Positions 1,065-39,145 of a stretch of DNA of 64,000 nt are shown here, in pieces. Location of the stretch: NCBI GenBank assembly GCA_016720805.1, contig JADKJZ010000002.1, positions 213,617-277,616 of the forward strand, read 5' to 3'. The DNA comes from Gemmatimonadota bacterium. Its GTDB lineage: Bacteria; Gemmatimonadota; Gemmatimonadetes; Gemmatimonadales; GWC2-71-9. Under the pieces are notes generated by a model. That model searched no databases. It saw only the letters and a list, made by a program, of their open reading frames with translations, and was not told where the DNA came from. The position numbers were made by a program, and so were the translations under genes. The first letter of the stretch is position 1. Every line of letters starts with the position of its first letter.

Positions 1065-1170
1065 GGATGATGGATGATGGATGATGGATGATGGATGATG
1101 GATGATGGATGCCAGCACCCCATCACTCCTCGTCCCGCATCCACCATCGATCATCCATCATCCATCATCC
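1065..1170. repeat. Heptamer-array hairpin element, unit GGATGAT / ATCATCC
   Basis: Left arm is six perfect tandem GGATGAT units (1065-1106). Right arm is three ATCATCC units plus degenerate copies (about 1138-1170). GC-rich spacer between them. Sits between the permease stop (1173) and the oxidoreductase start (1047). Confidence 0.85.
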
Positions 1171-1172
1171 AA

Positions 1173-2366
1173 TCAATGCGCTTCCACGACCGTCTTCGGC
1201 TTGAACGCCACCGCAAAAATCACAAAGATCACCACTGCCCCCAACGCCGGAATCTTCCAGATGGCGGTCCAGTCGTGGGTGCCGTCGGCGAGCTTGTGCG
1301 CGTCGACGATCCGTCCCGAGAGCCAGGAGCCGGCGAAGTTGCCGAAGCCGAGCGTGACCAGCGCGATGAAGCCCTGCGCGGCGGCGCGCACCTTCGGGCC
1401 GGCCTGCTGGTCGACGTAGATCTGACCCGAGACGAAGAAGAAGTCGTAGCAGACGCCGTGCAGCAGCAGGCCGGCATAGAGCAGCCACACCTTGGCGTCG
1501 GCGTTGCCGTAGGCAAAGGCGTAGTAACGCGCGGCCCAGGCGGCCATTGCCACCAGCAGGATCGTCTTGATGCCGTGCTTCCGGAGCAGTACCCCGATGA
1601 AGAGCATGAAGAAGACTTCGCTCATCTGCCCCATCGTCATCTTGCCCGCAGCGCTCGCCACCCCGATCTCGTTGAGGAAGGGATTGGCGAAAGCGTAGTA
1701 GAACTGGAGCGGGATGCAGAGCAGGAACGAGCCGAACAGGAAGACGGTGAACGACCGGTCCTTCATCAGCGCCAGGGCATCGATCCCGGCGGCGTCACGC
1801 CACGAGAAGGGCTTTCCCTTGCTCGGCGGCGGCGTGTGCGGAAGCAGGAAGGAGAAGAGGCCGAGGGCCACCGAGGCCATCGCCGCAATGCGGATCGGCG
1901 TGGCCGTGGCGTCGACACCGAGCTTGCCGAGCAGCAGCCCGACGGCGATCCAGCCGATCGTGCCGAGGACGCGGATCGATCCGAACTCGGCGGCAGGGTC
2001 CTTCAGGTGGCTCATCGACAGCGAATTGGTCAGCGCGAGCGTCGGCATGTAACAGAGGGCGTAGAGCAACATCCCGATGTACATCGAGTCGAAGGTGCTC
2101 AACGTCGAGACATAATAAAGCAACGCCGCCCCGATCAGGTGGAGGGCGGCGAGCATCTTCTCGGTGGGAAGGAAGCGGTCGGCGATCGTGCCGAGGCCGA
2201 AGGGCGTCACGATCGCGGCGATCGCGGTGGTGCCGTACATCAGGCCGATCTGTGCACCCTCGAACTTCAGCGTCTGGCCGAGGTAGGTGCCGAGGGTGAC
2301 GGCCCAGCTCCCCCAGATGAAATACTGGAGGAACATCATGATTTGGAGCCGGAGGCGAGTGCTCAC
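1173..2366 (-). CDS. MFS transporter, nucleoside:H+ symporter (NupG/XapB-like) family
   Basis: ORF 1173-2594. The N-terminal 76 codons look non-coding. GTG at 2366 gives VSTRLRLQIMMFLQYFIWGSWAVTLGTYL, which matches the conserved N-terminus of NupG-type permeases. About 12 hydrophobic segments. GTGA overlap with the upstream stop. Confidence 0.85.
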   Translation of the reverse strand: MSTRLRLQIMMFLQYFIWGSWAVTLGTYLGQTLKFEGAQIGLMYGTTAIAAIVTPFGLGTIADRFLPTEKMLAALHLIGAALLYYVSTLSTFDSMYIGMLLYALCYMPTLALTNSLSMSHLKDPAAEFGSIRVLGTIGWIAVGLLLGKLGVDATATPIRIAAMASVALGLFSFLLPHTPPPSKGKPFSWRDAAGIDALALMKDRSFTVFLFGSFLLCIPLQFYYAFANPFLNEIGVASAAGKMTMGQMSEVFFMLFIGVLLRKHGIKTILLVAMAAWAARYYAFAYGNADAKVWLLYAGLLLHGVCYDFFFVSGQIYVDQQAGPKVRAAAQGFIALVTLGFGNFAGSWLSGRIVDAHKLADGTHDWTAIWKIPALGAVVIFVIFAVAFKPKTVVEAH

Positions 2367-3100
2367 TTGATCTCCCGGATCTTGATGTTGCGGTACCAGA
2401 TGGTGTTGCCGTGTTCCTGCAGGCCGATGCTCCCCTTCCGCGCCAGGCCATACGTGGGCCACTGCGCAAACTTGGTCTTGCTCACCGCCGCCTTGAAGGC
2501 GCGCGAATCGAAGTCGACCTGGTCGGCGATCTTGGTCCCATTGAACCACGTCTCGACGATCGAGCCATGCGTCATGATCCGCATGGTATTCCATTCGCCG
2601 AGCGGCTTCACGAGGTCGGGGGCCGCAGGCGCCAGGCCATACAAGGCACCGGCCGACGTGAGCGGCGAGAGGCCGTCGCGGTGGCCGATGTTGTCGAGCA
2701 CCTGGATTTCCGGGGCGTTCTCGTAGACCACTTCGGTCCCTTCAGTGGCCCAGAAGAAGATGCCGCTGTTGCCCTTCGATTCGATCTTCCACTCGAGCAC
2801 CAGCTCGAACGAATCGAACTGCTTGTCGGTCATGATGTCGCCGGTGGTGGCGGTCTTCACCATCATCCCGTCCTTCGCTTCCCACCCGGTCATCTGCCCC
2901 GGCTTCTGGTAGAGGTGCCAGCCCTTCATGCTCTTCCCGTCGAAGAGCAGCGTCCAACCGGCCTGCTTCTCGGCGGCGGTCAGGGTGTTCGGGGTGGCAT
3001 GCATGGCGCTCATGTCATGTTGGGCGTGGGCGGTTGCCGCACCGGCAACCATCGCCACGGCGCAGGAAACGAGCACGCGAGCAGGCGCGCGTCGGAACAT
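2363..3100 (-). CDS. Secreted DUF1080 (3-keto-disaccharide hydrolase-like) domain protein
   Basis: ORF 2363-3169. The internal ATG at 3100 gives a signal peptide, MFRRAPARVLVSCAVAMVAGAATAHA. C-terminal GLQEHGNTIWYRNIKIREI is typical of DUF1080. Confidence 0.8.
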   Translation of the reverse strand: MFRRAPARVLVSCAVAMVAGAATAHAQHDMSAMHATPNTLTAAEKQAGWTLLFDGKSMKGWHLYQKPGQMTGWEAKDGMMVKTATTGDIMTDKQFDSFELVLEWKIESKGNSGIFFWATEGTEVVYENAPEIQVLDNIGHRDGLSPLTSAGALYGLAPAAPDLVKPLGEWNTMRIMTHGSIVETWFNGTKIADQVDFDSRAFKAAVSKTKFAQWPTYGLARKGSIGLQEHGNTIWYRNIKIREIK

Positions 3101-3143
3101 CGGCTGGCCTCGGAGCAAAGGGGAGTGGAGGGAACCCCGAAGC

Positions 3144-5063: not shown

Positions 5064-5183
5064 CGAGGCCGGGACCGGGAGGAGGTTGTGCTGCTGGCCG
5101 GAACAGGCTGGCCGAAAAGGCCCGCCATCAAGGCAAGGGGTGCGAGGCGCATGGTCGGTCGGGGTTGGAGTAGTCTCAAATGT

Positions 5184-5261
5184 AGTCGTTAGTCGTTAGT
5201 CATTGGTCGTTAGTCATCCGTTCAGGCCCTCCTAACGACTAACGACCAACGACCAACGACT
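5184..5261. repeat. Heptamer-array hairpin element, unit AGTCGTT / AACGACT
   Basis: Left arm 5184-5217 (agtcgtt agtcgtt agtcatt ggtcgtt agtcat). Right arm 5234-5261 (aacgact aacgacc aacgacc aacgact). 16-nt loop. Lies in the divergent region between GH20 and MOSC. Confidence 0.85.
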
Positions 5262-5275
5262 ATACTACTTCCCGA

Positions 5276-6067
5276 ATGCACCTCACCTCGCTCCACCGCT
5301 ATCCCATCAAGGGCTGCCGCGGCCATGCGCTCGCCTCCGCCGAGGTCGATGCACTCGGCCTCGTCGGCGATCGCCGCTTTCTGGTGGTCGACAGCAACGA
5401 CCGCTTCGTTTCGCAGCGGGAGGCCGCGGTGCTGGCGACGGTCACCCCGACCTTCGATGGCAGCATCCTCACCGTCGAGGCGCCAGGGGTCGAGGCGCTG
5501 GTGCTTGAGCTCGATCCGCAGGGCGCCTCGCGCGACGTGACGATCTGGGATGACCAGGTCACCGCCACCGACCAGGGCGACCATGCGGCCGAGTGGTTTG
5601 CCGAGGTGGTCGGCCATCCCTGCCGGTTGGTGCACTTCGGCGGCGAGGCGACCAGGCGGCTCGATCCGCGCTACTCGCCCAGGCCCGACGCGGAGACCGC
5701 CTTCGCCGACGGCTATCCGGTGCTGGCGGTGTTGCAGGAATCGCTCGACGACCTCAACCGTCGCCTCGCGGTACCAGTCCCGATGGAGCGCTTCCGTCCC
5801 AACGTCGTCCTCACCGGCGCGCCGGCCTGGAGCGAGGACACGTGGACCACGCTCACGCTGGGCGACGTCACCTTCGACGCGGTGAAGCCGTGCGCGCGCT
5901 GCACCGTGCTCACCGTCGATCAGCAGACCGGCGCCCGCGATCCGCAGCAGGAGCCGCTCCGGACCCTCGCGACCTTCCGGAACATTCCCGGACGCGGCAC
6001 GATGTTCGGGGTGAATCTGGTGCCGAGAGGAAGTGGAGTTGTGAGCGTTGAGCAGGATGATCGATGA
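5276..6067 (+). CDS. MOSC domain protein (YcbX-like, N-terminal beta-barrel plus MOSC)
   Basis: MHLTSLHRYPIKGCRG.. N-terminus and conserved C-terminal Cys in VKPCARCTVLTVDQ. The last codons (..EQDDR) are encoded by the left arm of the next repeat element. Confidence 0.85.
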   Translation: MHLTSLHRYPIKGCRGHALASAEVDALGLVGDRRFLVVDSNDRFVSQREAAVLATVTPTFDGSILTVEAPGVEALVLELDPQGASRDVTIWDDQVTATDQGDHAAEWFAEVVGHPCRLVHFGGEATRRLDPRYSPRPDAETAFADGYPVLAVLQESLDDLNRRLAVPVPMERFRPNVVLTGAPAWSEDTWTTLTLGDVTFDAVKPCARCTVLTVDQQTGARDPQQEPLRTLATFRNIPGRGTMFGVNLVPRGSGVVSVEQDDR

Positions 6068-6196
6068 TCGATCGGTGTGGGGGCCCTGTCATCCCGAGCG
6101 AAGCGAGGGACCTGCGTAGTCGCGGGCACGCAGATCCCTCACGTTGTTCGGGATGACACGCTCCATCGATCATCGATGATCGATCATCGATCATCC
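6055..6196. repeat. Heptamer-array hairpin element, unit GATGATC / GATCATC, with nested inner hairpins
   Basis: Outer arms 6055-6075 and 6163-6196. Inner inverted repeat tgtcatcccga (6087-6097) / tcgggatgaca (6148-6158) encloses a further ctgcgt..acgcag stem. Confidence 0.8.
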
Positions 6197-6223
6197 CTGT
6201 CACCTCTTATCGACCTACGGCCC

Positions 6224-7363
6224 ATGACCCTCCGCCTCTACTACAGCAACGCCACCCTGCGCGACTTTCCGGCCACCATCATCGGTCACGACGGCGACCT
6301 CACGCGCGTCGTCCTCGATCAAACCGCCTTCTACCCCACCTCGGGCGGCCAGCCGCACGACACCGGGATGCTCGGCGGCGTGCCGGTGGTCGACGTGATC
6401 GACGACGAGGAGCGGATCATCCATGTCCTGGCAGCGCCGCTGCCGCTGGGCGCGGTGCGCGGCGTGGTCGATGCCGTGCGGCGCACAGATCATATGGAGC
6501 AGCACACCGCGCAGCACCTCCTCTCGGCGATCGCGGCCGACACGTTCGGGTGGGAGACGGCGTCGGTGCATTTCGGGGCCGAACACTCGACCATCGAGTT
6601 CGCGGTGGCGTACGGCAGCGGGGCACAGCTCGCCGAGCTGGCGTCGCGCGCCCAGGCGGCCGTGCGCGCGGCGTTGCCGGTCACCGTGACCTTCGAGGCA
6701 TCGGCCGACGCGGTCGCCGCCGGACTCCGCAAGGCGCCGCCGCGCGAGGGTGAGTTGCGCGTCATCACCATCGCCGGGCTTGATCGGAGCGCGTGCGGCG
6801 GGACGCATGTGGCGAGCACCACGGAGATCGGACCGATCGTGCTCACCGGCGTCGAGAAGGTGCGCGGCCATCTGCGCGTCGGCTTCCTCGCGGGCGGGAG
6901 GGTGCTGGCGCATCTGGCCGAGCGTGACGCGCTGGTCGCGGCGTTGGCGCGGGCGCTCTCGTGCGCCGAGGATGAGCTGGCGGTGCTGGTGCCGAAGCGG
7001 CAGGAGGAACTCCAGGCGTTGCGTGTCCAGCTCGCGGCACTCGAGACGGAGCTCGCGGGGCATCGGGTGCGGGCATTGCTCGCCGCCGCGACGCCCGATG
7101 CCGATGGCGTTCGCCGCCTGGTGCATCACGCCACCACCGAATCGGCCACACTGCTCAAGGCGATGGCTCAGGCGGTGGCGGCCGAGCCGAAGGCCGTCCT
7201 GATCCTGGTCTCGACCCCGTCGGTGGTGCTCGGCAGCAGTGCCGACAGCGGGGTCGACGTCGGGGCCCTGCTGAAGGCCGCGATCGCGGCGCACGGCGGC
7301 AAGGGTGGTGGCTCGCCGCGGCTGGCGCAGGGGGTCGTGCCGTCCGGATGGCCGATGCCGTAG
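6224..7363 (+). CDS. alaX: AlaX-L type alanyl-tRNA editing protein (AlaRS second-additional-domain homolog)
   Basis: ORF 6077-7363. The first 49 codons are repeat-encoded. ATG 6224 gives MTLRLYYS... Zinc motifs HTAQHLLS and SACGGTHV are present. Confidence 0.8.
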   Translation: MTLRLYYSNATLRDFPATIIGHDGDLTRVVLDQTAFYPTSGGQPHDTGMLGGVPVVDVIDDEERIIHVLAAPLPLGAVRGVVDAVRRTDHMEQHTAQHLLSAIAADTFGWETASVHFGAEHSTIEFAVAYGSGAQLAELASRAQAAVRAALPVTVTFEASADAVAAGLRKAPPREGELRVITIAGLDRSACGGTHVASTTEIGPIVLTGVEKVRGHLRVGFLAGGRVLAHLAERDALVAALARALSCAEDELAVLVPKRQEELQALRVQLAALETELAGHRVRALLAAATPDADGVRRLVHHATTESATLLKAMAQAVAAEPKAVLILVSTPSVVLGSSADSGVDVGALLKAAIAAHGGKGGGSPRLAQGVVPSGWPMP

Positions 7364-7425
7364 GGGCGACGCCTGCGTCGCCCTCTCGGTCGCGATCCTC
7401 GTACGGGCGACGCATGCGTCGCCCC
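7363..7425 (+). terminator. Two tandem GC-rich palindromic hairpins downstream of alaX
   Basis: ggggcgacgcctgcgtcgccc (7363-7383) and the perfect palindrome gggcgacgcatgcgtcgccc (7405-7424). No clear U-tract, so terminator function is inferred from position only. Confidence 0.45.
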
Positions 7426-7503
7426 TACACCCACTCGGAATGCCGATGTAGATTGGGCTCAATCCCCGCCACAACATCGTTACCCTCAACGCCAGGGCCG
7501 CTC

Positions 7504-9006: not shown

Positions 9007-9022
9007 GGCGCATCCACCCCCG

Positions 9023-9469: not shown

Positions 9470-9485
9470 CCACCCCGCAGGACCG

Positions 9486-9528
9486 CCGGCCGAGGCAGGG
9501 AACTCCCTGCCTCGGCCGTTTTATTATT
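9486..9528 (+). terminator. Rho-independent terminator
   Basis: Stem ccggccgaggcaggg / ccctgcctcggcc, loop aact, followed by gttttattatt. Lies directly after the DinB stop (9469). Confidence 0.8.
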
Positions 9529-9533
9529 GGCGC

Positions 9534-10235: not shown

Positions 10236-10340
10236 TTGGGCCGGGGGCGTCCGGGCCGCGGAAGGGTTACCTTCTGGGGATCCGGGCGCCTGGCTGGTGG
10301 CGGGCGTCGTCCTGTCGCGTCGTGCCCGCCGGAGCCACCT

Positions 10341-11132: not shown

Positions 11133-11154
11133 TGGGGATGCGCTCGATGTCTGG

Positions 11155-12707: not shown

Positions 12708-12727
12708 GCTGATTTGTAGCGACTGGT

Positions 12728-12763
12728 TATCGATCATCGATGATCGATCATCGATGATCGATG
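12728..12763. repeat. Heptamer-array palindrome, unit GATCATC / GATGATC
   Basis: tatcgatcatcgatgatcgatcatcgatgatcgatgg is self-complementary. Lies between convergent stops at 12707 and 12771. Confidence 0.8.
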
Positions 12764-14939: not shown

Positions 14940-15833
14940 ATGCGGAAGATCGGTCTGGCCCTTGCGGCCGTCGTTGCCCTGAGCGGCTGTGTCAGCAAGA
15001 AGTCCTACGACCAGCTCGTGCTCGAACAGCAACGGGTCACCGAACAGAAGGACTCGCTCGTCGCGGATGTGCTCGCGGCCACGCAGATGGTCACCGAGAT
15101 CAACACCGATCTCGCCCGCGTCAAGGCGCTGGGCGTCTCGCCGGTCGCCGGCGGGGATCGGCCGCTCGCCGGCCGCGCCGAAGAGCGCGCGGTCCTCCTC
15201 GGCAAGGTGCGCGAGGTGATCGCCCGCCTCGACGCCGCCGAGCAGCAGATCGCGGCCCAGAAGAAGCGGATCGGCGGGCTGTCGGCCGAGCGGACCAAGC
15301 TCGTTGCCCAGCTCGATACCTTCCAGAAGTCGATCAATGACCTCCGCGTCGCCGCGCAGGAGCAGGAGGCGATGATCTCGGAACAGAAGGTCCAGATCGC
15401 GACGCTGACGTCGCAGGTCGACACGCTGAACCAGAAGACGGTGCAGCTGACCACCGAGAAGACCGCGGTGCAGGACACCCTCGTCCGCGTGATCGACGAG
15501 AGCAACGTCGTGTACTATGCCGTCGGTACCAAGGAGGAGCTGCTCAAGCGCGGCATTCTCGTGACCGAGGGGAGCAAGTTCCTGGTCTTCGGGAGCAAGA
15601 CGCTGCAGCCGGCCCGCGACCTCAAGCCGGAGCTCTTCCAGCGGCTCGATCGCCGTCGCGACACCATCCTCACGGTGCCGGAGCCGAACAAGGAATACCG
15701 CATCGTGACGCGGCAGAGCGCCTCCTTCCTCGCCTCGACCGTGATGTCGAACGGCAAGGTGAAGGGTGACCTGCACATCTCGTCGCCGGAGTTCTGGGAC
15801 GGCGGGAAGTTCCTGATTCTGGTCAGGGATTGA
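14940..15833 (+). CDS. Coiled-coil lipoprotein, function unknown
   Basis: ATG 14940 gives MRKIGLALAAVVALSGC (lipobox). About 170 aa of heptad-like Q/L/E-rich sequence, then a globular C-terminus. Confidence 0.6.
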   Translation: MRKIGLALAAVVALSGCVSKKSYDQLVLEQQRVTEQKDSLVADVLAATQMVTEINTDLARVKALGVSPVAGGDRPLAGRAEERAVLLGKVREVIARLDAAEQQIAAQKKRIGGLSAERTKLVAQLDTFQKSINDLRVAAQEQEAMISEQKVQIATLTSQVDTLNQKTVQLTTEKTAVQDTLVRVIDESNVVYYAVGTKEELLKRGILVTEGSKFLVFGSKTLQPARDLKPELFQRLDRRRDTILTVPEPNKEYRIVTRQSASFLASTVMSNGKVKGDLHISSPEFWDGGKFLILVRD

Positions 15834-15840
15834 TCTTTAG

Positions 15841-15951
15841 GCGTTAGTCATTAGTCGTTAGTCGTTAGTTGCGTGATCGGAGGTCGCTACCCGTGGTTCA
15901 TGATTCGGGTGTGACTAACGACCAACGACCAACGACTAACGACTAACGACT
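15841..15951. repeat. Heptamer-array hairpin element, unit AGTCGTT / AACGACT (same family as 5184-5261)
   Basis: Left arm 15841-15870, right arm 15913-15951 (five aacgacc/aacgact units). About 40-nt spacer. Confidence 0.85.
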
Positions 15952-15974: not shown

Positions 15975-16433
15975 ATGCGCCTCCGCTCCCTCCTCCCCAC
16001 CCTCCTTCTCCTCGCCGGCGCCGCATCCGTCGCGGCGGCCACTCGCGCTCCGGCTCCGGCACCGCTGGCAATCCGCGTGGTGAAGTCGCCGTCCTGCGGC
16101 TGCTGCACGGCGTGGGTGGACTACCTGAAGACCAAGGGCTTCACCGTCACCGTCGAGGCGCGTGAGGAATTCACGGCGCTGAAGCGGGCGAACGGCGTGA
16201 CGCCGGCGCTGGAGTCGTGCCACACCGCCTTCATCAACGGCTATGTCGTGGAGGGACACGTCCCGGCCGAGCTGATCAAGCAGTTGATCGCGACCAAGCC
16301 GGCGGGTGTGAAGGGCATCGCGGTCCCCGGGATGCCGATCGGGTCGCCTGGGATGGAGCAGGGGCCGCCACAGCGTTACACCGTCTACACCTTCGATGCG
16401 AAGGGGAAGGCGACGGTCTTCGCACAGCGATGA
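15975..16433 (+). CDS. DUF411 (CopG-like) periplasmic metal-binding protein
   Basis: Signal peptide. SPSCGCC and GYVVEGHVP motifs are characteristic of DUF411. Confidence 0.8.
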   Translation: MRLRSLLPTLLLLAGAASVAAATRAPAPAPLAIRVVKSPSCGCCTAWVDYLKTKGFTVTVEAREEFTALKRANGVTPALESCHTAFINGYVVEGHVPAELIKQLIATKPAGVKGIAVPGMPIGSPGMEQGPPQRYTVYTFDAKGKATVFAQR

Positions 16434-16646: not shown

Positions 16647-17417
16647 CTACTGCGGCTGCGGCTCCCGTGCCAGTTCGTCCCGGAGCCGGTTCCGCGCCGT
16701 CAGGATCCGCTCCCGCACCCGCTCCCGCAGCGCCGGCACATCCGCCATTGTCAGCCCTGCGGTCGGCTCGGCCGCCAACACCTCGACAATCGCGTGGGTC
16801 GTCCCGATGCGCCAATCGTGCTTGGCGATCGCGTGGCGCGTGCCGTAGAGCGCCAACGGGAGGATCGGGACGCCGGCCTCGACCGCCAGCCGGAACGCGC
16901 CGTCCTTGAACGGCAGCATCGCCTCCTCCGGTGAGCGCGTCCCCTCGGGGAAGATCATCACCGAGACATGGTCCTTCAGCCGGCGCTTGCACTCGTTCAT
17001 CGCGTCCTTCGCGCTGGTGCCGCGCCCCCGCTTCACCCCGATGTCCATCGCCGCCCAGAGCAGCCAGCCGAGGAACGGGATCCGGAAGATCTCGACCTTG
17101 CTGAGCCACTTCATCTCCCACGGCAGGTGGGTGAGCAGCAGCATGTCGGCGAACGACTCGTGGTTCGACACCACCACATACGGGTGCCGCGGATCGGCCG
17201 GCATCACGCCCCGGGTCTCGAAGCGCCAGCGCGGCGTGATGAACGCCACGAACGGCCCGATGTTCCGGAACCAGCGGCCACCCCGGTAGTTCCAGCGATC
17301 CCACGGCCACGCCACCGCCCGGTAGAGCAGCACGCACGGCAGGGTCACCACCAGCGCCATGGCCAGGAGGGTCCAGGTCCAGATGGAGGCGAGGGTGGTT
17401 CGGAAGCGGGTGGGCAT
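16647..17417 (-). CDS. plsC: 1-acyl-sn-glycerol-3-phosphate acyltransferase
   Basis: NHESFAD (HX4D) and FPEGTRS motifs. ATG at 17417; the track starts at TTG 17426. Confidence 0.85.
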   Translation of the reverse strand: MPTRFRTTLASIWTWTLLAMALVVTLPCVLLYRAVAWPWDRWNYRGGRWFRNIGPFVAFITPRWRFETRGVMPADPRHPYVVVSNHESFADMLLLTHLPWEMKWLSKVEIFRIPFLGWLLWAAMDIGVKRGRGTSAKDAMNECKRRLKDHVSVMIFPEGTRSPEEAMLPFKDGAFRLAVEAGVPILPLALYGTRHAIAKHDWRIGTTHAIVEVLAAEPTAGLTMADVPALRERVRERILTARNRLRDELAREPQPQ

Positions 17418-17424
17418 GGGGAGC

Positions 17425-17538
17425 AAACGTAAACGGTGAACGGTGAACGGTGAACGGGGGTGGGGGCCATGGGGTAAGGCCCCGTTTCACGTTTCACCCC
17501 TCGCCCCGGCCGTCACCGTTCACCGTTCACCGTTCACC
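17425..17538. repeat. Heptamer-array hairpin element, unit GAACGGT / ACCGTTC
   Basis: Left arm 17425-17458 (aaacgt aaacggt gaacggt gaacggt gaacggg). Right arm 17511-17538. Inner ggggcc..ggcccc hairpin and a cgtttcacgtttcac sub-repeat. Confidence 0.85.
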
Positions 17539-17553
17539 ATCTATTATCCCCGC

Positions 17554-18630
17554 ATGAACCAATCTTCCATCGACCTCCTCTCCCGCCTCCTCGACGCCCC
17601 CGGCCCCTCCGGCTTCGAGCGGGCCCCGGCCCGCCTCTGGCGCGAGGCCGCCGCCTTCGCCGATGACGTTCACGCCGATGTCGGCGGCAACTCGTTCGCC
17701 ACGGTGCACCCGGCGAGCGGGCCCTCCGGGGCGCTTCGGGTGATGTTTGCCGGGCACATCGACGAGATCGGCGTGATGCTCGTCCACGTGGACGAGCACG
17801 GCTTCTGTTACTTCGAGCCGATCGGGGGCTGGGATCCGCAGGTCTTCGTCGGGCAGCGCGTCGTCCTGCTGGGCCGCAACGGCGCCGTTCCCGGGGTGAT
17901 CGGCAAGCAGGCGATCCACCTCATGGATCAGGTCGACCGCGACAAGCTGTCGAAGCCGCACGACCTCTGGATCGACATCGGCGCCACGTCGCGGGCCGAG
18001 GCGCTGGCGCTCGTCGCGATCGGCGATGCCGGGGTGCTCGGCTCGACCGTCACGCATCTGCCGAACGGTCGGATCGTCTCCCGCTCGCTCGACAATCGCA
18101 TCGGAGCGTTCGTCGTCCTCGAGGCGCTGCGCCGACTCGCCGCCGATCGTCCCGCCCTGTCCGTGACCGCCGTAGCGACCACCCAGGAGGAGATCGCCTA
18201 CAGCGGCGGTGGGGCGCGCACCTCGGCCACCTCGTTGGCGGCCCATGCCGCCATCGTGGTCGATGTCACGCACGCGACCGACTCGCCAGGGATCGAAAAG
18301 AAGCGCCATGGCGAAGTGAAGCTCGGCGGTGGCCCGGTCCTCTCGCGTGGCGCCGCGGTGAATCCGGTGCTCTTCGACCTCTTGGTGGAGACGGCGACGG
18401 CAGAAGGAATTCCATTCACGGTGCAGGGCGCGGCGAGGTACACCGGCACCGATGCCGATGCCATCTTCACCGCGCGCGGCGGCGTGGCGACGGCCCTGGT
18501 GTCGGTGCCGCTGCGGTACATGCACTCACCCAACGAATTGGCGGCGTTGAGCGACATCGAACATGCCGCAGCGCTGTTGGCCGCCACGGCGCGTCGACTC
18601 GAGCACGCCACCGACCTCATCCCGCGCTAG
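17554..18630 (+). CDS. M42-family metallopeptidase (FrvX/YsdC-like aminopeptidase)
   Basis: ATG 17554 gives MNQSSIDLLSRLLDAPGPSGFE. GHIDEIG motif. Typical length of 358 aa. Confidence 0.85.
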   Translation: MNQSSIDLLSRLLDAPGPSGFERAPARLWREAAAFADDVHADVGGNSFATVHPASGPSGALRVMFAGHIDEIGVMLVHVDEHGFCYFEPIGGWDPQVFVGQRVVLLGRNGAVPGVIGKQAIHLMDQVDRDKLSKPHDLWIDIGATSRAEALALVAIGDAGVLGSTVTHLPNGRIVSRSLDNRIGAFVVLEALRRLAADRPALSVTAVATTQEEIAYSGGGARTSATSLAAHAAIVVDVTHATDSPGIEKKRHGEVKLGGGPVLSRGAAVNPVLFDLLVETATAEGIPFTVQGAARYTGTDADAIFTARGGVATALVSVPLRYMHSPNELAALSDIEHAAALLAATARRLEHATDLIPR

Positions 18631-26758: not shown

Positions 26759-27414
26759 TGGCGCGGGAGACCAGGGCCGCCAAGGCGAGCCGCGTACTGG
26801 AACTGCTCGCGCGGCTCAAGGCCGAGTATCCCGACGCGCACTGCGAACTCGACTACCGCAACGCCTTCGAGCTGCTCGCCGCCACGATCCTCTCGGCGCA
26901 GTGCACCGACGTGCGGGTCAACCTGGTCACGCCGGCGCTCTTTGCCCGCTACCCCGATGCGCACGCGCTCGCCGCCGCGAAGCAGGAAGACGTCGAGGAG
27001 CTGATCCGCTCCACCGGCTTCTTCCGCAACAAGGCGAAGTCGCTCATCGGGATGGCCCAGGGATTGGTGGCCGAGTTCGACGGCGAGGTGCCCCGGACCA
27101 TGGCCGAGCTGCGGCCGCTCCCCGGTGTCGGCCGGAAGACGGCGAACGTCGTCCTCGGCAACGCCTTCGGCCTCAGCGAGGGGATCACGGTGGACACCCA
27201 TGTCCTCCGTCTCTGCCGCCTGCTGGGCCTCTCCCGGGCCACCGATGCGGTCAAGTTGGAACAGGAGCTGATGCCGCTCATCCCTCGGGACGACTGGGCG
27301 CTGGTCTCGCACCTGCTGATCTGGCACGGGCGGCGGGTGTGCATTGCGAATCGACCCAAGTGTGGGGAGTGCGTGCTGAATGACCTGTGTCCGAGCCGGC
27401 AGGATGATGGATGA
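26758..27414 (+). CDS. nth: Endonuclease III
   Basis: HhH-GPD ([13 protein letters not shown]) and an Fe-S cluster loop [22 protein letters not shown] overlap with polX. Confidence 0.9.
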
Positions 27415-27478
27415 TGGATGATGGATCATGGATGATTGATCGGCATATTCATCATCTATCATCCATCATCCATCATCC
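27402..27478. repeat. Heptamer-array hairpin element, unit GGATGAT / ATCATCC (same family as 1065-1170)
   Basis: Left arm 27402-27443, including the nth stop codon. Right arm 27448-27478 with three perfect atcatcc units. Confidence 0.85.
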
Positions 27479-27513
27479 TATATTTGACGCTTCACCTTTT
27501 GAGGATCTCCACG

Positions 27514-27963
27514 ATGTCCAAGACTGCCACTCTCGTCACCGCCCGCGGCACCATCACGGCCGAGCTCTATCCAGAGGCCGCGCCGGGGACGGTCGAGAAT
27601 TTCGAGAAGCTTGCCAACAGCGAGTTCTATGATGGCGTGCGGTTCCACCGCGTCATCAACAACTTCGTGATTCAGGGTGGCGATCCGCTCTCGAAGGATC
27701 CGAACAACCCGCGCGTCGGCACCGGTGGCCCGGGCTGGACCATCAAGTGCGAGACCAAGGGCAACCCGCACAAGCACGCGGCCGGCTCGCTCTCGATGGC
27801 GCATGCCGGCAAGGATACGGGTGGCTCGCAGTTCTTCATCGCGCACTCGCCGCAGCCGCACCTCGATGGCATCCACACCGTCTTCGGGCAGGTGACCGAG
27901 GGGATGGACGTGGTCAATGCGATCAAGCAGGGCGATGTCATCACCTCGATCCGGGTGAGCTGA
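27514..27963 (+). CDS. Cyclophilin-type peptidyl-prolyl cis-trans isomerase
   Basis: gagga Shine-Dalgarno at 27501, ATG 27514. [15 protein letters not shown] and GGSQFFI motifs. Confidence 0.9.
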
Positions 27964-30378: not shown

Positions 30379-30403
30379 TCAACCTCCCCCAGCGGGGAAG
30401 CGT

Positions 30404-33919: not shown

Positions 33920-33920
33920 A

Positions 33921-35414
33921 GTGAAGCAGCCCATCCGCCTCCTCGCCGTCCTTGCCCTCGTGACGGCCACCGCCTGCAAGAAGGAAGAGCCGGCGCCGGT
34001 CTACGAGGCCGTGGCCATCGGCAAGCGCGACATCATCGTGACGGCGCAGGCCGCCGGCGCGATCAATCCCGACACGATCGTGGACGTGAAGTCGCGCGCC
34101 TCCGGCGAGATCACCGACCTCGCGGTCGAGACGGGGCAGCTGGTCCGGCGTGGCGCCCTGCTGGCGCGCGTCGATCGGCGCGTCCCGCAGAACCGGGTGT
34201 CGCAGGCGGAAGCGGCGGCGGAAGTGGCGACGGCGCGGCTCCGGAACGCCGAGGCGCAGCTGCGCCGGGCCAAGGAGCTCTTCGCGTCGCGGGCGATCAC
34301 CGAGCAGGAACTCGAGACCACGACACTCGACGTCGCCAACTCGAAGGCCGCGGTCATCTCGTCGACCATCGACCTCGAGAACGCCAAGATCGCGCTCGAG
34401 GACACCGAGGTGCGCGCCCCGATCAACGGGACGATCATCGCCAAGAACGTCGAGCGCGGCACCGTCATCTCGTCGCCGGTGAGCGACGTTGGCGGCGGCA
34501 CCGTGCTCCTCAAGATGGCCGACCTCACCCTGGTGCAGGTCAAGACCTTCGTCGACGAGACCGACATCGGCAAGCTGCGCGTCGGGCTCGAGGCGAACGT
34601 CACGGTCGACGCCTATCCGAACCGGCCGTTCAAGGGCGAGCTGCTCAAGATCGAGCCGCAGGCCGACACCATCCAGAACGTGACGATGTTCCCGGTGCTG
34701 GTGCGGATCGACAACAAGGACGGCTTGCTCAAGCCAGGGATGAGCGCCAACGTCCGGATCGGCGTCGGCGAGCGGCGTGACGTGCTCGCGGTGCCGAACG
34801 CAGCGCTGCGGACCGAGCGTGACGTGGCCAGCGCGGCCACGGTGCTTGGCCTGGCCGAGGCCGATTTCAAGACGATGCTCGAAGCGGCCAAGGCCGCGGC
34901 GGCGCCGCCGGCCGGCACGCCGAGCCCCGATGGCGCGCTCGAATTGCAGGGCAAGGGTGGCGCACCGGTCGACGCCAAGCCGGCGACGGATCCGAAGGCC
35001 GCGGCGGGGGCCACCGGCCAGCGTGGCGCGGCGGGTGGGCAGACCGGCCGCGGCGGCGCCGGCGGGCAGACGGGTGGCCGGGGTGGACGCGGCGGCGGCA
35101 ACGGCGACGCCTTCAGCGGCGGCACCTACATCGTCTTCGTGCAGCGCGACGGGAAGCCGACGCCGGTGTACATCAAGACCGGGTTGACCGACCTCGACTA
35201 CTCGGAAGTGAAGAGCGGGCTCAAGGAAGGCGACATGGTGCTCATGCTGCCGAGCGCCTCGCTGATCCAGGGCCAGCAGAACCTGCAGAACCGGATGAAG
35301 TCCATGAGCGGCGGCCTCCCGGGCCAGTCGAACACCGCGGCGCCGGCCGCTGGTGGGGCGGGCAAGGGTGGGGCGACGCCGGCGGCTGGTGGCGCGAAGC
35401 CCGGAGGGCGTTGA
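33921..35414 (+). CDS. Periplasmic adaptor (HlyD/MacA-like) lipoprotein with Gly/Ala-rich insertion
   Basis: GTG 33921 gives VKQPIRLLAVLALVTATAC (lipobox). Coiled-coil hairpin, and RAPINGTII lipoyl-like segment. Confidence 0.85.
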   Translation: MKQPIRLLAVLALVTATACKKEEPAPVYEAVAIGKRDIIVTAQAAGAINPDTIVDVKSRASGEITDLAVETGQLVRRGALLARVDRRVPQNRVSQAEAAAEVATARLRNAEAQLRRAKELFASRAITEQELETTTLDVANSKAAVISSTIDLENAKIALEDTEVRAPINGTIIAKNVERGTVISSPVSDVGGGTVLLKMADLTLVQVKTFVDETDIGKLRVGLEANVTVDAYPNRPFKGELLKIEPQADTIQNVTMFPVLVRIDNKDGLLKPGMSANVRIGVGERRDVLAVPNAALRTERDVASAATVLGLAEADFKTMLEAAKAAAAPPAGTPSPDGALELQGKGGAPVDAKPATDPKAAAGATGQRGAAGGQTGRGGAGGQTGGRGGRGGGNGDAFSGGTYIVFVQRDGKPTPVYIKTGLTDLDYSEVKSGLKEGDMVLMLPSASLIQGQQNLQNRMKSMSGGLPGQSNTAAPAAGGAGKGGATPAAGGAKPGGR

Positions 35415-35415
35415 T

Positions 35416-36627
35416 ATGCTGATCGGCGAGACGATTCGAGTCGCGTTGGCCTCGATCCGGGCCAACAAGCTGCGGGCCCTGCTGACCATGCTCGGCGTGA
35501 TCATCGGCGTCGCGGCAGTCATCACCGTCGTGGCGATGGGGACCGGGGCGCAGAAGGCCGTCGAGGACAAGATCAACTCGCTCGGCGCCTCGCTGGTGCA
35601 GATCAACGCCGGCCAGGGGATGAACCGCGGCGTGGCGACGCAGGATCGCGCGGCATTGCTCGTGGCCGACTACGAGGCGCTGCGGCGTGACGCGACGACG
35701 CTGAGCGAGGTCGTCCCGGAGCTGCAGAAGAACCAGCAGGTCCAGCTGGTGTCGACGAACATCAACACCTCGATCGTCGGCACCACGGCCAACTATCCCA
35801 AGGCGCGGAACTACACCATCACCACCGGCCGGATGTTCACCGATGGCGATGATGCGGCGCGGCAGCTCTATGCCGTCGTCGGCTCCGACGTGCCGAAGAT
35901 GCTGAACGTCAACGCGGGCGCCATCATCGGCCAGCAGATCCTGATCCGGAAGCTGCGCTTCGAGGTCATCGGCGTGCTGTCGTCGAAGGGCTCGCAGGGG
36001 TGGCAGAATCCGGACGAGCAGATCCTGATCCCGCTGAACACCGCGCGCTACCGCGTCTTCGGCACCGACCGGCTCCGCTCGATCGCCGTCGTCGTCCGCG
36101 ACAAGGTGCCGATGGAGCAGGGGATGGTCGAGGCCGAGCGGATCATGCGCCGCGAGCACAAGATCCGCCCGGGCGCCGACAACAACTTCCAGATCGTCTC
36201 GCCGAAGGAGTTCCTCGCGACGCAGCAGCAGACGTCCGAGACCTTCTCGCTCCTGCTCCTCGCGATCGCCGGCGTCTCGCTGCTGGTCGGCGGCATCGGC
36301 ATCATGAACATCATGCTGGTCTCGGTCACCGAGCGCACCAAGGAGATCGGCATCCGGAAGGCGCTCGGTGCCACCAAGTTCACGATCATGGGCCAGTTCC
36401 TGATCGAGGCGCTGGTGCTCTGCCTCGCCGGCGGTCTCGTCGGCATCCTGCTCGGCTGGGGCGCCTCGTCGATCGTCTCGCAGAAGCTCGGCTGGAGCAC
36501 GGTGATCTCGCCGGTCGCCGTCGGCGTCGCCTTCGCCTTCTCGGCGCTGGTCGGCCTCTTCTTCGGCCTCTGGCCGGCGCGGCGCGCCGCGAGCCTCGAT
36601 CCGATCCAGGCGTTGCGGTACGAGTAA
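35416..36627 (+). CDS. ABC transporter permease (MacB/FtsX-type)
   Basis: MLIGETIRVALASIRANKLRALLTMLGVIIGVAAVI, a large periplasmic loop, and a C-terminal FtsX-like 3-TM bundle. Confidence 0.85.
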   Translation: MLIGETIRVALASIRANKLRALLTMLGVIIGVAAVITVVAMGTGAQKAVEDKINSLGASLVQINAGQGMNRGVATQDRAALLVADYEALRRDATTLSEVVPELQKNQQVQLVSTNINTSIVGTTANYPKARNYTITTGRMFTDGDDAARQLYAVVGSDVPKMLNVNAGAIIGQQILIRKLRFEVIGVLSSKGSQGWQNPDEQILIPLNTARYRVFGTDRLRSIAVVVRDKVPMEQGMVEAERIMRREHKIRPGADNNFQIVSPKEFLATQQQTSETFSLLLLAIAGVSLLVGGIGIMNIMLVSVTERTKEIGIRKALGATKFTIMGQFLIEALVLCLAGGLVGILLGWGASSIVSQKLGWSTVISPVAVGVAFAFSALVGLFFGLWPARRAASLDPIQALRYE

Positions 36628-36636
36628 TCGGCGATC

Positions 36637-36721
36637 AGCGAACAGCGAACAGCGAACGGCGGTGTCGAGGGAAGATCTCCTCCCGACACCGCCGTTCGCC
36701 GTTCGCCGTCCGCCGTTCGCT
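36637..36721. repeat. Heptamer-array hairpin element, unit AGCGAAC / GTTCGCC
   Basis: Three agcgaac units (36637-36657). Core hairpin ggcggtgtcgagg..cccgacaccgcc. Four gttcgcc-like units (36694-36721). Confidence 0.85.
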
Positions 36722-36737
36722 CCACTATCTTCGCCCC

Positions 36738-39047
36738 ATGAAATTCCTCCTCCCCGCCGCCCTGCTGCTCCCCGCGCTGCTCCCGGCGCAGTCCCCGACC
36801 CATGCCGTGACGCCACCACGGGTCGAGGCCGAGGTGGTGATCGACGGCCGTCTGGATGAGGCGGTCTGGCGGCAGGCGACCCGGCTCGATGGTTTTCATC
36901 AGTTCCAGCCGGTGGACTCGCGCCCGGCCGAAGACTCGACGGTGGTGCTGGTCTGGTACTCGCCCACGGCGATCCACTTCGGCGTCCTGGCCTACGACCG
37001 GGTCCCTGAAGGGGTGCGGGCCACCGTCTCCGACCGCGACAACATCGGCAGCGACGATCAGGTCACCGTCTTCCTCGACACCTTCAACGACCGTCGCCGT
37101 GCCTACTTCTTCGGCGTGAACCCCTACGGCATCCAGGACGATGGGGTCAGGAGCGAGGGCGGCTTTTCCACCAGCAGTGGCATGTCGGGGAGCACCGACC
37201 GCAATCCCGATTTCCTCTGGCAGAGCAAGGGGATGAAGACGGACTTCGGCTGGGTGGCCGAGATTCGCGTCCCCTTCAAGTCGTTGCGCTGGGGTGGCGG
37301 GGAGATGCTGACGTGGGGACTCAACGTGCAGCGCACGACGCGCCGCACGGGGTACGACGACACCTGGACCGATGTTCGCCGCGCCAGCGCCTCGTTTCTC
37401 GGGCAGGCTGGTACGATCACCGGGATCCATGACATCAAGCGCGGGGTCGTCACCGAACTCCAGCCGACGCTGACGGCGGAACTGCCGGGGACCAGGTCGT
37501 CGAACGGCAGCTTTGACCGCGGCGACGTGCGCACCGAAATCGGCGGCAACTTCCGGCTGGGCTTCACGCAGGTGACACTCGACGGCACCATCAATCCGGA
37601 CTTCTCGCAGGTCGAGTCCGACGCCGGGCTGGTGACGATCAACGAACGCTTCGCCCTCTTCTTCCCGGAGCGGCGCCCCTTCTTCCTCGAGGGGATCGAA
37701 CTCTTCGCCTCGCCGAACAACCTGGTCTACACCCGCACCGTGGCGAATCCGCTCGCAGGCGGCAAGGTGACCGGCAAGTACGGCGCGTGGACGGTCGCCC
37801 ATTTGACGGCGCTCGACGAGTTCGGCGCGGCGCGTGACGGCAGCGCGACCGCCGACACGCGCAGTCTCGCGAATCTGACCCGACTGCGCCGCGATGTCGG
37901 CGACAACTCCGTGGCCGGGATCACCCTCACCAACCGGGACGAGGATGGCCATCACAATCGGGTCATCTCCGCCGACACGCGGATCGTCTTCAACAAGCTC
38001 TACTACTTCCAGGGGCAGCTGGGCGCGTCGTTCACCAAGGACGACCGCTCCGACAAGTTCCGTTCCGATCCGCTCTGGGATCTCGAGGTCGACCGCACCG
38101 GCCGCGCCTTCGGCTTCAACTACAAGATCACCGCGATTGGCAATGACTTCGAGACGTGGAGCGGCTTCGTCAATCGGACCGGCATCGCGACGGCGCGCGC
38201 CTTCAATCGCTACTCGGTCTACGGCTCGCGCGGCGCGCTGGTCGAGCAGGCGACCGTGTTCGGCGGCATCTCGCGGATCTACCGCTACAGCGAACTCGGC
38301 GGCAAGGCACTCGAGGGCGGCCAGGAGCTGAACGCCTCGATGCGGCTCCGCGGCGGATGGAATCTGAGCAGCCGGGGCGAACTGGCCTTTGTGCGCTTCG
38401 ATCCTGCCGCGTATGCCAACTACACGGTCGATCGAACCACTGTCGGCCTTGGCGCCGTCCCGCAGCCGTTCCCGCTTTCCTCCGGCATCTACGATGCGCT
38501 TGGCGCCTCCCTGTCGATCTCCACGCCGACCTGGCGGCTCTGGCAGGGCTCGCTGCGTGTCGAGCGCGGTACCAAGGCGATCTTCCCCGAAGCCGCCGAG
38601 GCGCGCGGAACGTCGGCCACGGCGTCGATCACCATGCGCCCGTCGCCGGCAGTGCGCGTCTTCGGGACGCTCGCGGTGCAGAAGCTCGAACGGAAGCGTG
38701 ACGGCAGCGAGTTTGCGCGCACGGTCCTGCCGCGCCTCAAGGTCGAGGTGCAGCCGAACCGGTCGCTCTTCTTCCGCATGGTGGGGGAGTACCGCAGCGA
38801 ACGGCAGTCGATGCTGATCGATCCCGTCTCCGGGGATCCCATCCTGATCAACGGCAGCGCCTCGCCTGCTCGGCAGACCGACCGCCTCCGCGTCGACTGG
38901 CTCGCGTCCTACGAGCCGACGCCCGGCACCGTCGCCTTCCTCGGCTACGGCTCGACGCTGCGCGGCGACCGGCCGCTGACCTTCCGCGCGCTGGAGCGGA
39001 CGGAGGATGGATTGTTTGTGAAGGTGGCGTATTTGTTCAGAAGGTGA
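36738..39047 (+). CDS. Secreted CBM9-like / DUF5916 family protein (putative outer-membrane barrel)
   Basis: ATG 36738 gives MKFLLPAALLLPALLPAQS. VIDGRLDEAVWRQA..F.QFQP is typical of CBM9-like N-domains. Long beta-rich C-terminus ending ..VKVAYLFRR. Confidence 0.7.
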   Translation: MKFLLPAALLLPALLPAQSPTHAVTPPRVEAEVVIDGRLDEAVWRQATRLDGFHQFQPVDSRPAEDSTVVLVWYSPTAIHFGVLAYDRVPEGVRATVSDRDNIGSDDQVTVFLDTFNDRRRAYFFGVNPYGIQDDGVRSEGGFSTSSGMSGSTDRNPDFLWQSKGMKTDFGWVAEIRVPFKSLRWGGGEMLTWGLNVQRTTRRTGYDDTWTDVRRASASFLGQAGTITGIHDIKRGVVTELQPTLTAELPGTRSSNGSFDRGDVRTEIGGNFRLGFTQVTLDGTINPDFSQVESDAGLVTINERFALFFPERRPFFLEGIELFASPNNLVYTRTVANPLAGGKVTGKYGAWTVAHLTALDEFGAARDGSATADTRSLANLTRLRRDVGDNSVAGITLTNRDEDGHHNRVISADTRIVFNKLYYFQGQLGASFTKDDRSDKFRSDPLWDLEVDRTGRAFGFNYKITAIGNDFETWSGFVNRTGIATARAFNRYSVYGSRGALVEQATVFGGISRIYRYSELGGKALEGGQELNASMRLRGGWNLSSRGELAFVRFDPAAYANYTVDRTTVGLGAVPQPFPLSSGIYDALGASLSISTPTWRLWQGSLRVERGTKAIFPEAAEARGTSATASITMRPSPAVRVFGTLAVQKLERKRDGSEFARTVLPRLKVEVQPNRSLFFRMVGEYRSERQSMLIDPVSGDPILINGSASPARQTDRLRVDWLASYEPTPGTVAFLGYGSTLRGDRPLTFRALERTEDGLFVKVAYLFRR

Positions 39048-39145
39048 ACGGTAAGCGGCAAGACGTGAGACGTAAGAGGTGAAACGGGTGCCCCACTGAC
39101 TCCGTTTCACCTTTTACGTTTCACGGCCGTTGTTCACCGTTCACC
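39043..39145. repeat. Heptamer-array hairpin element, GGTGAAC-related degenerate units
   Basis: Left arm 39043-39087 (ggtgaac ggtaagc ggcaaga cgtgaga cgtaaga ggtgaaa). Right arm 39102-39145. Spans both convergent stop codons (39047 and 39141). Confidence 0.75.

Follow-up and report, generated by a model that had tools for sequence, protein, structure and literature searches.

Nine intergenic hairpin elements, here named E1 to E9, are present in the first 40 kb of a 64,000-nucleotide (nt) stretch of a Gemmatimonadota genome (GCA_016720805.1, contig JADKJZ010000002.1, positions 213,617 to 277,616), referred to below as the window; no element is found between 40 and 64 kb. Each element begins with an array of a 7-nt unit (5' array), continues with a loop or core and closes with an array of the complementary unit (3' array), and the 5' unit usually has more G than C and usually contains TGA or TAG. 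The elements are members of the known class of heptanucleotide simple-sequence repeats, in its convergent-pair form. In the same gaps of related genomes the arms gain and lose 7-nt units at fixed gene boundaries, and the elements are not copies of one mobile sequence: site and architecture persist while the sequence turns over by concerted change. We consider it probable that they are slippage-driven, hairpin-forming heptanucleotide simple-sequence repeats which change in situ and are tolerated at the ends of genes.

A scan in which all periods had the same fixed threshold, complemented by a Tandem Repeats Finder run, detected in the window fifteen arrays of period 7, none of periods 4-6 and 8-11, and two of period 12; the twelve matches at period 14 are a harmonic of 7. 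Second-order Markov controls (20 simulated windows) contained 0 or 1 period-7 array each, about 0.25 per window. By inverted-repeat search fourteen of the fifteen arrays are inverted partners and the remaining one (E4) is self-complementary, which gives the nine hairpins. Tandem Repeats Finder reported period-7 arrays in both arms of E1, E2, E3, E5, E6, E7 and E8, a single self-complementary array in E4 and a weak, degenerate array in E9. The period also predominates in 87 kb of relatives' DNA, obtained via proteins and hence unbiased for repeats, where 16 arrays have period 7 as compared to 8 for all non-harmonic periods of 4-6 and 8-13 combined. The initial annotation of the window had described nine elements of this architecture at these positions, and direct reading, Tandem Repeats Finder and the inverted-repeat search all agree with it. 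The spacer of 12-75 nt that it gave needs correction for E3 (91 nt, enclosing a separate hairpin at 6087-6158) and E4 (no spacer); inter-arm spacers range from 0 to 91 nt. The elements and their neighbouring genes are the following.

E1, 1065..1171: 5' arm (GGATGAT)x6.7 at 1065-1111, spacer 1112-1137, 3' arm (CATCCAT-type)x4.9 at 1138-1171; neighbours, nucleoside:H+ symporter stop at 1173 (minus strand) and GFO/IDH/MocA oxidoreductase start at ~1047 (minus strand).
E2, 5183..5262: 5' arm (TAGTCGT)x4.7 at 5183-5215, spacer, 3' arm (CTAACGA/CCAACGA)x4.4 at 5232-5262; neighbours, divergent starts of a GH20 hexosaminidase gene (minus strand) and a MOSC gene (ATG at 5276).
E3, 6055..6196: 5' arm (GATGATC)x2.5 at 6055-6073, core 6074-6163, 3' arm (CATCGAT)x4.6 at 6164-6196; neighbours, MOSC stop at 6065-6067 within the 5' arm and AlaX-like gene start at 6224.
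E4, 12729..12763: single self-complementary array (ATCGATC/ATCGATG)x5; neighbours, convergent stops of a glyoxalase-like gene (12707) and an L-PSP gene (12771).
E5, 15837..15951: 5' arm (TTAGTCG)x4.7 at 15837-15869, spacer, 3' arm (GACTAAC/GACCAAC)x5.6 at 15913-15951; neighbours, a stop at 15833 and DUF411 gene start at 15975.
E6, 17429..17540: 5' arm (AACGGTG)x3.7 at 17432-17457, inner layer including (CGTTTCA)x2 at 17483-17497, 3' arm (TCACCGT)x3.7 at 17513-17538; neighbours, divergent starts of an acyltransferase gene (minus strand, ~17420) and an M42 peptidase gene (ATG at 17555).
E7, 27402..27478: 5' arm (GGATGAT)x5.6 at 27402-27440, 3' arm (ATCATCC)x4.1 at 27450-27478; neighbours, endonuclease III-like stop at 27412-27414 within the 5' arm and cyclophilin gene start at 27514.
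E8, 36631..36721: 5' arm (AGCGAAC)x3-4 at 36631-36661, GC-rich core hairpin 36657-36696, 3' arm (GTTCGCC)x4 at 36690-36721; neighbours, MacB/FtsX permease stop at 36627 and DUF5916 gene start at 36738.
E9, 39043..39145: outer unit GGTGAAC, degenerate inner CGTRAGA-type units at 39050-39087, loop, 3' arm (TTTCACG ... GTTCACC) at 39102-39145; neighbours, DUF5916 stop at 39045-39047 in the outer unit and a minus-strand gene at 39141-39599, whose stop is overlapped by the 3' arm.

The main units of the window are GGATGAT, TAGTCGT, GATGATC, GGTGAAC and AGCGAAC, none of which contains a G-tract. Since units such as GATGATC and GGATGAT are only one base apart, as are AACGGCG and AACGGTG, the unit "families" grade into one another. 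Two further corrections to the initial annotation are that the units of E9 are degenerate (NGTRARN) and the arms of E8 differ at one base per unit, with AGCGAAC on the left and the complement of GGCGAAC on the right.

Gene order is kept in relatives down to 64% protein identity, so that the same gaps can be compared. The comparison covers 64 kb of the source genome together with related loci amounting to about 1 Mb, with relatives ranked by identity to the window and not by phylogeny. A metagenome scan with the DUF481 protein contributed four short contigs, among them L123 and L124. The nearest ones are L134 (GCA_016709975.1), which is 95.2% identical over 4.9 kb, and L061 (metagenome-assembled genome (MAG) AS_Ams2_Bin22), which is 92.9% identical over 8 kb. 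In L061 the E7 element is (GATGATC)3/(GATCATC)2, as compared to (GGATGAT)5.6/(ATCATCC)4 in the window; it is shorter and has a one-base difference in each unit of the two arms, with flanks that align cleanly. An 86% identical relative carries (CACCGTT)3 at the E7 site. At E8, L134 and L130 have a core and right arm identical to those of the window and a left arm of three to four units differing in unit variants, L131 (90% amino acid identity) has a left arm of eight perfect CGGCGAA units and a right arm of four degenerate ones, L132 (86%) and L135 (96%) have CGAGAAG units in both arms, and L136 (93%) has GTGAAAC units within a GTTCGC remnant.

At E9 all relatives share the outer GGTGAAC arms and the inner layer varies: it is (GTGACCN)3/(CTGGTYA)3 in L130 (97%), (AGTAACC)5/(GGTCACA)5 with arms pairing at 5/7 positions in L135 (96%), and of the window type (CGTRAGA-type), expanded, in L136 (93%), while in L134 (95%) remodelling is confined to the right arm. 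Nesting is also found at the E4 site of L123 (86%), which carries the two-layer hairpin (GCGAACR)4[(GGTGAGG)3 ... (CCTCACY)3](GTTCGCN)4. In L128 (MAG Ww170, 75% amino acid identity) E2 is kept with GAGTCGT units, and the adjoining E3 site also carries GAGTCGT, not GATGATC. In the most distant relative cited here, L125 (64%), the E2, E3, E5 and E6 gaps are short and empty with the genes intact, and the E1 gap contains a direct-only (CGAGAAG)9 array. Almost all relatives of 86-97% identity have an element in the E7, E8 and E9 gaps, although the units have turned over completely.

A variant unit can replace all copies within one arm and, over longer times, those in both arms, and inner layers near the hairpin tip change fastest. 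Homogenisation within an arm is fast, and faster than any correction between arms, because arms can diverge (A versus G in E8; E9 of L135); agreement between arms is kept over longer times, imperfectly. The relatives at 86-97% identity thereby give a stepwise series of arm slippage, two-arm unit replacement and tip turnover. The suggestion of the initial annotation that this is a slippage-prone repeat family gains support from the changes in unit count (copy numbers of the arms differ at E7 and E8) and in unit sequence at orthologous sites.

It is scarcely credible that assembly or sequencing artefacts produced the elements. The contig of L130 does end inside E9, which shows that assemblers struggle with these repeats; the same gaps are however occupied, with conserved flanks, in assemblies made independently (NCBI, ENA, JGI and Logan), and this speaks against the artefact which the initial annotation had allowed for. 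On the practical side such arrays create spurious open reading frames (ORFs), shift annotated gene ends and break assemblies.

The loop of E3 (6087-6158) is the hairpin of a second repeat family, with ends GTCATCC(C/T)GAGCGAAGCG ... CGCTTCGCTC(A/G)GGATGAC and a full form of about 125 nt. The hosts of this core family are Gemmatimonadales MAGs and one Prevotellaceae MAG, and in 1.08 Mb of loci eight of ten occurrences are inside heptamer arrays of different units or at most 200 nt from them. The core hairpin has no Rfam family, and its sequence is in no paper found by literature search. Occurrences elsewhere are the following.

L069, 2210-2325 and 6635-6753: GTCATCC..GGATGAC core.
L067, 229-352: GTCATCC..GGATGAC core.
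L052, ~60-150: GTCATCC..GGATGAC core.
L083, 3060-3130: GTCATCC..GGATGAC core.
L118, 4975-4997: GTCATCC..GGATGAC core.

Its closeness to heptamer arrays is one of the observations by which the elements could be seen as non-autonomous mobile elements, similar to miniature inverted-repeat transposable elements (MITEs) or REPINs, or as their footprints, with a hairpin-recognising transposase and this core as the mobile part. Such an origin would also account for the sharing of units within the genome (E1 and E7, E2 and E5, E3 and E4), the GAGTCGT units at both adjoining sites of L128 and the recurrence of the same units across genomes. We nevertheless regard it as quite unlikely. Elements which share a unit have unrelated loops and no common termini, for which reason the whole-element mobility proposed in the initial annotation is unsupported, and changes at orthologous sites are graded (unit counts, single-base variants, inner layers) instead of being the presence or absence of a fixed sequence. 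No transposase, RAYT/Y1 or other, is found among the 38 ORFs of the 64-kb window scanned with Pfam. Apart from the E3 core and the orthologous E8 cores, the loops show no similarity to each other or to the ~1 Mb of related loci. E3 does have ATGA on both sides of the insertion, with a single ATGA at the empty site of L125, where the MOSC and AlaX-like genes overlap at ATGA; this duplication is not diagnostic, because any viable insertion between overlapping genes would need ATGA twice in order to keep both genes intact. No target-site duplication beyond this ATGA could be judged, the relatives with empty sites being too diverged.

According to the slippage explanation, which we prefer, units would be gained and lost by replication slippage in a 7-nt register within each arm, and the arms would be kept complementary by copying or repair while the DNA is folded, i.e. 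by intrastrand template switching, a process known for quasi-palindromes. The remodelling of the tips may be due to the fragility of hairpin tips. It is conceivable that overlaps of stop and start at ATGA or GTGA act as seeds, the E3 site and the frequency of RTGA in the units giving an anecdotal hint in this direction. The 7-nt register would fit the proposal of Mrazek and colleagues, as summarised in PMC4679880, that 7 nt match the stretch gripped by DNA polymerase.

The orientation of the arms is strongly biased. A hairpin reads identically on either strand, and being the 5' arm is therefore an intrinsic property. Over the window elements and all related loci collected, the 5' arm has more G than C in 40 elements and less in 4 (p = 2e-8), and in 33 elements the 5' arm alone carries a stop codon, in one element the 3' arm alone (p = 4e-9). 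Counted by unit family the stop polarity is 16 to 1 (p = 3e-4), and 14 to 1 (p = 1e-3) upon exclusion of the two families which had been searched for. The probability of a stop in a random heptamer is 0.15 at 68% G+C and 0.31 at 50% G+C. The 33-to-1 ratio is a concrete, testable constraint on models of origin or function.

A stop-bearing 7-nt unit repeated three times closes all three reading frames, and the polarity may be the result of a survivorship filter. An array which touches the end of an ORF and changes by 7 nt would be harmless only if every frame is stopped. With the stop-bearing arm in 5' position on both strands, an ORF coming in from either side would end at once, whatever the copy number, and the downstream gene, which would tolerate only a stop-free adjoining arm, would be left unblocked by a stop-free 3' arm. 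Examples are found around E3. The MOSC gene of the window ends within the E3 array (..QDDR*), while that of L128 reads three units before reaching a TGA (..EVVSRES*). In the latter genome the AlaX-like gene starts before a stop-free 3' arm of three units (21 nt) and reads through it, which adds seven codons and gives the N-terminus MTHDSRPTTRLYY as compared to MTLRLYY in the window. Judging from these predicted frames, heptamer arms in L128 (2334-2412) have become coding sequence.

The gene map is based on codon usage, supported by Pfam matches; gene starts are predicted, some of them checked against the gene calls of relatives. In this map all nine elements lie in gaps between genes, which are co-directional for E1, E3, E5, E7 and E8, between convergent stops for E4 and E9, and between divergent starts for E2 and E6. 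At four of the nine stop-side flanks the stop of the gene is inside the array (E3, E7 and both sides of E9) and at three further ones it is within 3 nt (E1, E5, E8); start codons are 8-39 nt away from the elements. The description of the elements as intergenic and flush with start and stop codons in the initial annotation thus holds. Together they sum to ~860 nt, roughly 40% of the non-coding DNA of the first 40 kb, where the non-coding share is ~5.3%. With every array within a hairpin and such a proportion of the local intergenic DNA, this lineage is an unusually clean case.

Seven of the nine elements come directly after a stop codon, and at several sites an element ends just before the -10-like TAnnnT of the next gene, i.e. 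between two transcription units. Both observations agree with a selected RNA or DNA structure, a bidirectional terminator or insulator or a 3'-end stabiliser of the type of repetitive extragenic palindromic (REP) sequences and bacterial interspersed mosaic elements (BIMEs), for which only the structure matters and the sequence drifts in concert. This is a possible, if doubtful, alternative to slippage. The -10-like TAnnnT is found directly after the 3' arm at E2, E6 (both sides), E7 and E8; the boxes are TATACT, TACGTT, TATTAT, TATATT and TATCTT, in the following regions.

5257-5278: -10-like box region, at E2.
17406-17428, minus strand: -10-like box region, at E6.
17541-17557: -10-like box region, at E6.
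27479-27516: -10-like box region, at E7.
36722-36740: -10-like box region, at E8.

The TATCTT box is kept in all E8 orthologs. Between box and ATG there are 5-9 nt at E2 (right side), E6 and E8, and such short distances suggest that these transcripts may be leaderless. A promoter scan identified TTCACC-17-TATTAT at 17519-17547, with the -35 box within the E6 array; when tested among the window elements, the supply of a -35 box by the 3' arm was convincing at E6 only.

All nine elements fold better than dinucleotide-shuffled controls, a comparison which had been proposed with the initial annotation. RNA folding of both strands gave z scores of -4.5 to -12 and folding as single-stranded DNA z scores of -5.0 to -9.0, with none of 200 shuffles folding as well; the orthologous elements in relatives fold in every case (z -3.5 to -15). 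The centroid structure of E6 is nearly empty and its minimum-energy stem is long, as expected when a stem can pair in several 7-nt registers. The high stability on both strands is in favour of a selected structure, as are the occupation of the E7, E8 and E9 gaps in nearly all relatives of 86-97% identity and the compensatory changes in E8, for which an alignment of five orthologs has 37 consensus pairs, seven of them changed on both sides. Transcripts crossing a gap would carry a very stable, register-degenerate hairpin, and this predicted RNA hairpin could serve as a 3'-end barrier or insulator between transcription units. The terminator, insulator and mRNA-stabiliser roles suggested in the initial annotation are thus possible ones, which may or may not apply.

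Other data are less easy to reconcile with selection on structure. The better-folding strand does not track the transcribed one: the asymmetry between G-U and A-C pairs is inconsistent, favouring the coding strand in E3, E5 and E7 and strongly the other strand in E8, whose non-coding strand folds 18 kcal/mol better, likewise in three relatives. None of the nine elements has a T-run and the terminator scan reports none of them. A canonical intrinsic terminator is present elsewhere in the window, at 9487-9528 after a DinB-family gene (14-bp GC-rich stem followed by TTTTATTATT), and the organism thus uses ordinary terminators as well. Termination would be pointless at E2 and E6, which have divergent starts on their two sides. 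Finally, arms can diverge, as in E9 of L135, direct-only arrays occupy the same sites in L125 and L132, and the E2, E3, E5 and E6 sites are empty in L125 with no damage to the genes.

It is very improbable that the arrays are binding sites for a protein stepping in 7-nt intervals, for instance one of the ribbon-helix-helix type on DNA (such as omega of pSM19035) or one of the cold-shock or S1 type on RNA. The strict 7-nt period would suit such a protein, and omega binds direct and inverted heptad arrays. For RNA the corresponding example is CspB, of which one protein binds one heptamer (cited in PMC4679880). However, 40 kb contain five or more unrelated units and the relatives over 20, and units are replaced at a fixed site, so that no single sequence-specific binder fits; the spacers of 0 to 91 nt do not fit either.

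Several points weigh against slippage and remodelling in place as the explanation. Slippage alone leaves the exclusivity of period 7 unexplained, and the idea of a polymerase footprint has been published as a conjecture, not as a result. That one arm is copied from the other is inferred, and the arms diverge in E8 (A versus G) and in E9 of L135 (5/7 positions pairing); selection for pairing would yield the same long-term pattern. The units CGAGAAG, GAGTCGT, GGTGAAC and GCGAACR recur at different sites and in different genomes, which could be due to exchange between elements instead of purely local evolution. The core hairpin family found in several loops may have a share in the origin of the elements, which slippage ignores, and stop content and G-richness are inseparable in these data as the primary variable of the polarity.

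Period 7, polarity, tip nesting and the recurrent core could alternatively be the signature of a dedicated process in Gemmatimonadota, Bacteroidota, Xanthomonas and cyanobacteria, which we think unlikely. This may be an enzyme with a 7-nt ruler which adds G-rich units where the DNA is broken or at the tips of hairpins, with copying by fold-back afterwards, or it may be a selected module which combines a translation stop in all frames with two-way insulation of transcription at gene boundaries.

In order to describe the taxonomic spread, though not as a census, one genome per species was scanned with the pattern (GATGATS)3, which is seeded on one unit type. There were at least 120 matches, and among those listed are Gemmatimonadota (many contigs per MAG), Bacteroidota, Verrucomicrobiota, Acidobacteriota, Planctomycetota and others. 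The 8-kb blocks around listed matches often carry further heptamer arrays of other units; these bystander arrays occur at 0.04-0.25 per kb in Gemmatimonadales MAGs and at 0.19 per kb in the window, from which some hundreds of arrays can be roughly extrapolated for a genome of a few Mb. A complementary partner within 170 nt is present for 47% of the arrays in loci of at least 62% G+C and for 5-11% in lower-GC loci, which are mostly from Bacteroidota and have direct arrays. With the pattern (GATGATS)3 viral contigs gave only 17 matches, so that there is no link to phages. Some Bacteroidota loci, i.e. L078, L088 and L017 (Epilithonimonas bovis) and furthermore L021, L041, L071 and L118, have dense direct arrays of several units, up to 12 in 8 kb with 0.69 bystander arrays per kb, and almost never inverted pairs.

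The window is ordinary Gemmatimonadales chromosome of 65-73% G+C, in which all named protein matches are to Gemmatimonadales or Gemmatimonadota. By Pfam its genes include those for the GH20 hexosaminidase, the nucleoside symporter, MOSC, the AlaX-like editing protein, two DUF481 proteins, the M42 peptidase, endonuclease III, cyclophilin, a MacB-type efflux operon, DUF5916 and a GH94 glucan enzyme. After the AlaX-like gene, at 7360-7428, are two palindromes GGGCGACGC(N3)GCGTCGCCC arranged as 24-nt inverted arms with no heptamer periodicity. In the region 40000-64000 heptamer arrays and strong intergenic hairpins are both absent despite several apparent gaps; the codon-usage gene map covers only 68% of it, and genes may be atypical or missed. 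Here two long ORFs, 41185-45084 and 44850-48200, overlap in different frames; they both have GH94 and glucoamylase-type domains and may be one frameshift-split glucan-synthase-like gene or two adjacent genes. The DUF5916 gene of L134 (GCA_016709975.1, 2174-4308) is annotated in two overlapping parts, 285 and 435 aa long, probably owing to a frameshift in that assembly.

Among known systems, REP sequences, BIMEs and REPINs resemble the present elements in that they are imperfect palindromes outside genes, found where genes end in gaps of the convergent and co-directional types, with stable hairpins in the transcript. REPs differ by having a conserved sequence of 20-40 nt per genome and a partner RAYT transposase, and this group is ruled out by the presence here of at least five unrelated units, of stems made up of tandem 7-mers and of no conserved palindrome. 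MITEs would have terminal inverted repeats and a target-site duplication around a conserved body, and no such body is seen here. CRISPR arrays, with repeats of 23-50 nt and unique spacers of similar length, are ruled out by contiguous 7-nt units in inverted arrays. The initial annotation, which had recognised none of these types, is supported, for MITEs by the missing body. With intrinsic terminators the elements share a GC-containing hairpin directly after a stop codon, in contrast to which they have no T-run, stems of 25-45 bp that are far longer, and two representatives between divergent starts. A canonical intrinsic terminator is ruled out, as none of the nine is found by the terminator scan and tails are not T-rich save for the -10-like TAnnnT. 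Searches of Rfam gave no match at gathering score in the whole window, and a permissive search of five related loci returned only a tRNA and a sub-threshold chance match; a tRNA scan of the window gave nothing relevant. No paper on such elements in Gemmatimonadota was found by literature search.

Cyanobacterial STRR sequences (short, repetitive and repeated in tandem) comprise several heptamer families per genome in intergenic tandem arrays, and like the present elements they are capable of forming long helices. STRR arrays reportedly form the two sides of a long helix, P12 of the RNase P RNA (Vioque, 1997), and Jackman and Mulligan are said to have described in 1995 intergenic regions which are "highly variable but structured" between close strains. 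The differences are in the hosts, which for STRR are low-GC filamentous cyanobacteria, and in the unit sequences.

The TAACTGA direct repeats of Beggiatoaceae, cyanobacteria and Bacteroidetes (MacGregor 2015, PMC4679880) are likewise stop-bearing heptamers (TAA, TGA), intergenic and flush with gene boundaries, and in Bacteroidetes they have neighbouring arrays of other heptamers as in the present elements (PMC4679880). Unlike these, they consist of a single unit, are almost always direct (one inverted among 170) and lie just upstream of starts (PMC4679880).

The closest counterpart is in Xanthomonas, which has ~185 GGGAATC arrays per genome, 89-93% of them intergenic, for which no function was found (Rehm et al. 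2015, PMC4692102). These include 70-75 convergent array pairs per genome which are stem-loop-capable and close to ORF ends, and the same gaps are occupied in X. campestris and X. axonopodis with extensive variation in length and sequence (PMC4692102). Both systems have intergenic tandem 7-nt units, the Xanthomonas arrays being on average 28 nt from the upstream ORF (PMC4692102), and in the convergent pairs the G-rich array, on the plus strand, comes first, which is the polarity seen here. Xanthomonas has one dominant, G-quadruplex-capable unit with a G-tract, whereas the present elements use many units, all lacking G-tracts, and in addition have core hairpins and layers of different units nested in one another; their host phylum is Gemmatimonadota. 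Since no window unit has a tract of three to four G, the G-quadruplex family of Xanthomonas GGGAATC and Nostoc GGGGAYT is ruled out.

The initial annotation implied a type not yet described, and in this it was wrong, as the heptamer repeat class and the convergent pairs of Xanthomonas are published (PMC4679880, PMC4692102). Both papers, citing Mrazek 2007, give heptanucleotide repeats as the most over-represented class of long simple-sequence repeats in bacteria and the most abundant one in most bacterial genomes. The features of the convergent-heptamer class are all four found in the present elements: an excess of tandem 7-nt units, an intergenic position near ORF ends, complementary pairs and variation at the locus. 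New in comparison are the host phylum, the complete pairing of the arrays, the intergrading unit families, the nested layers, the stepwise series in relatives and the polarity rule.

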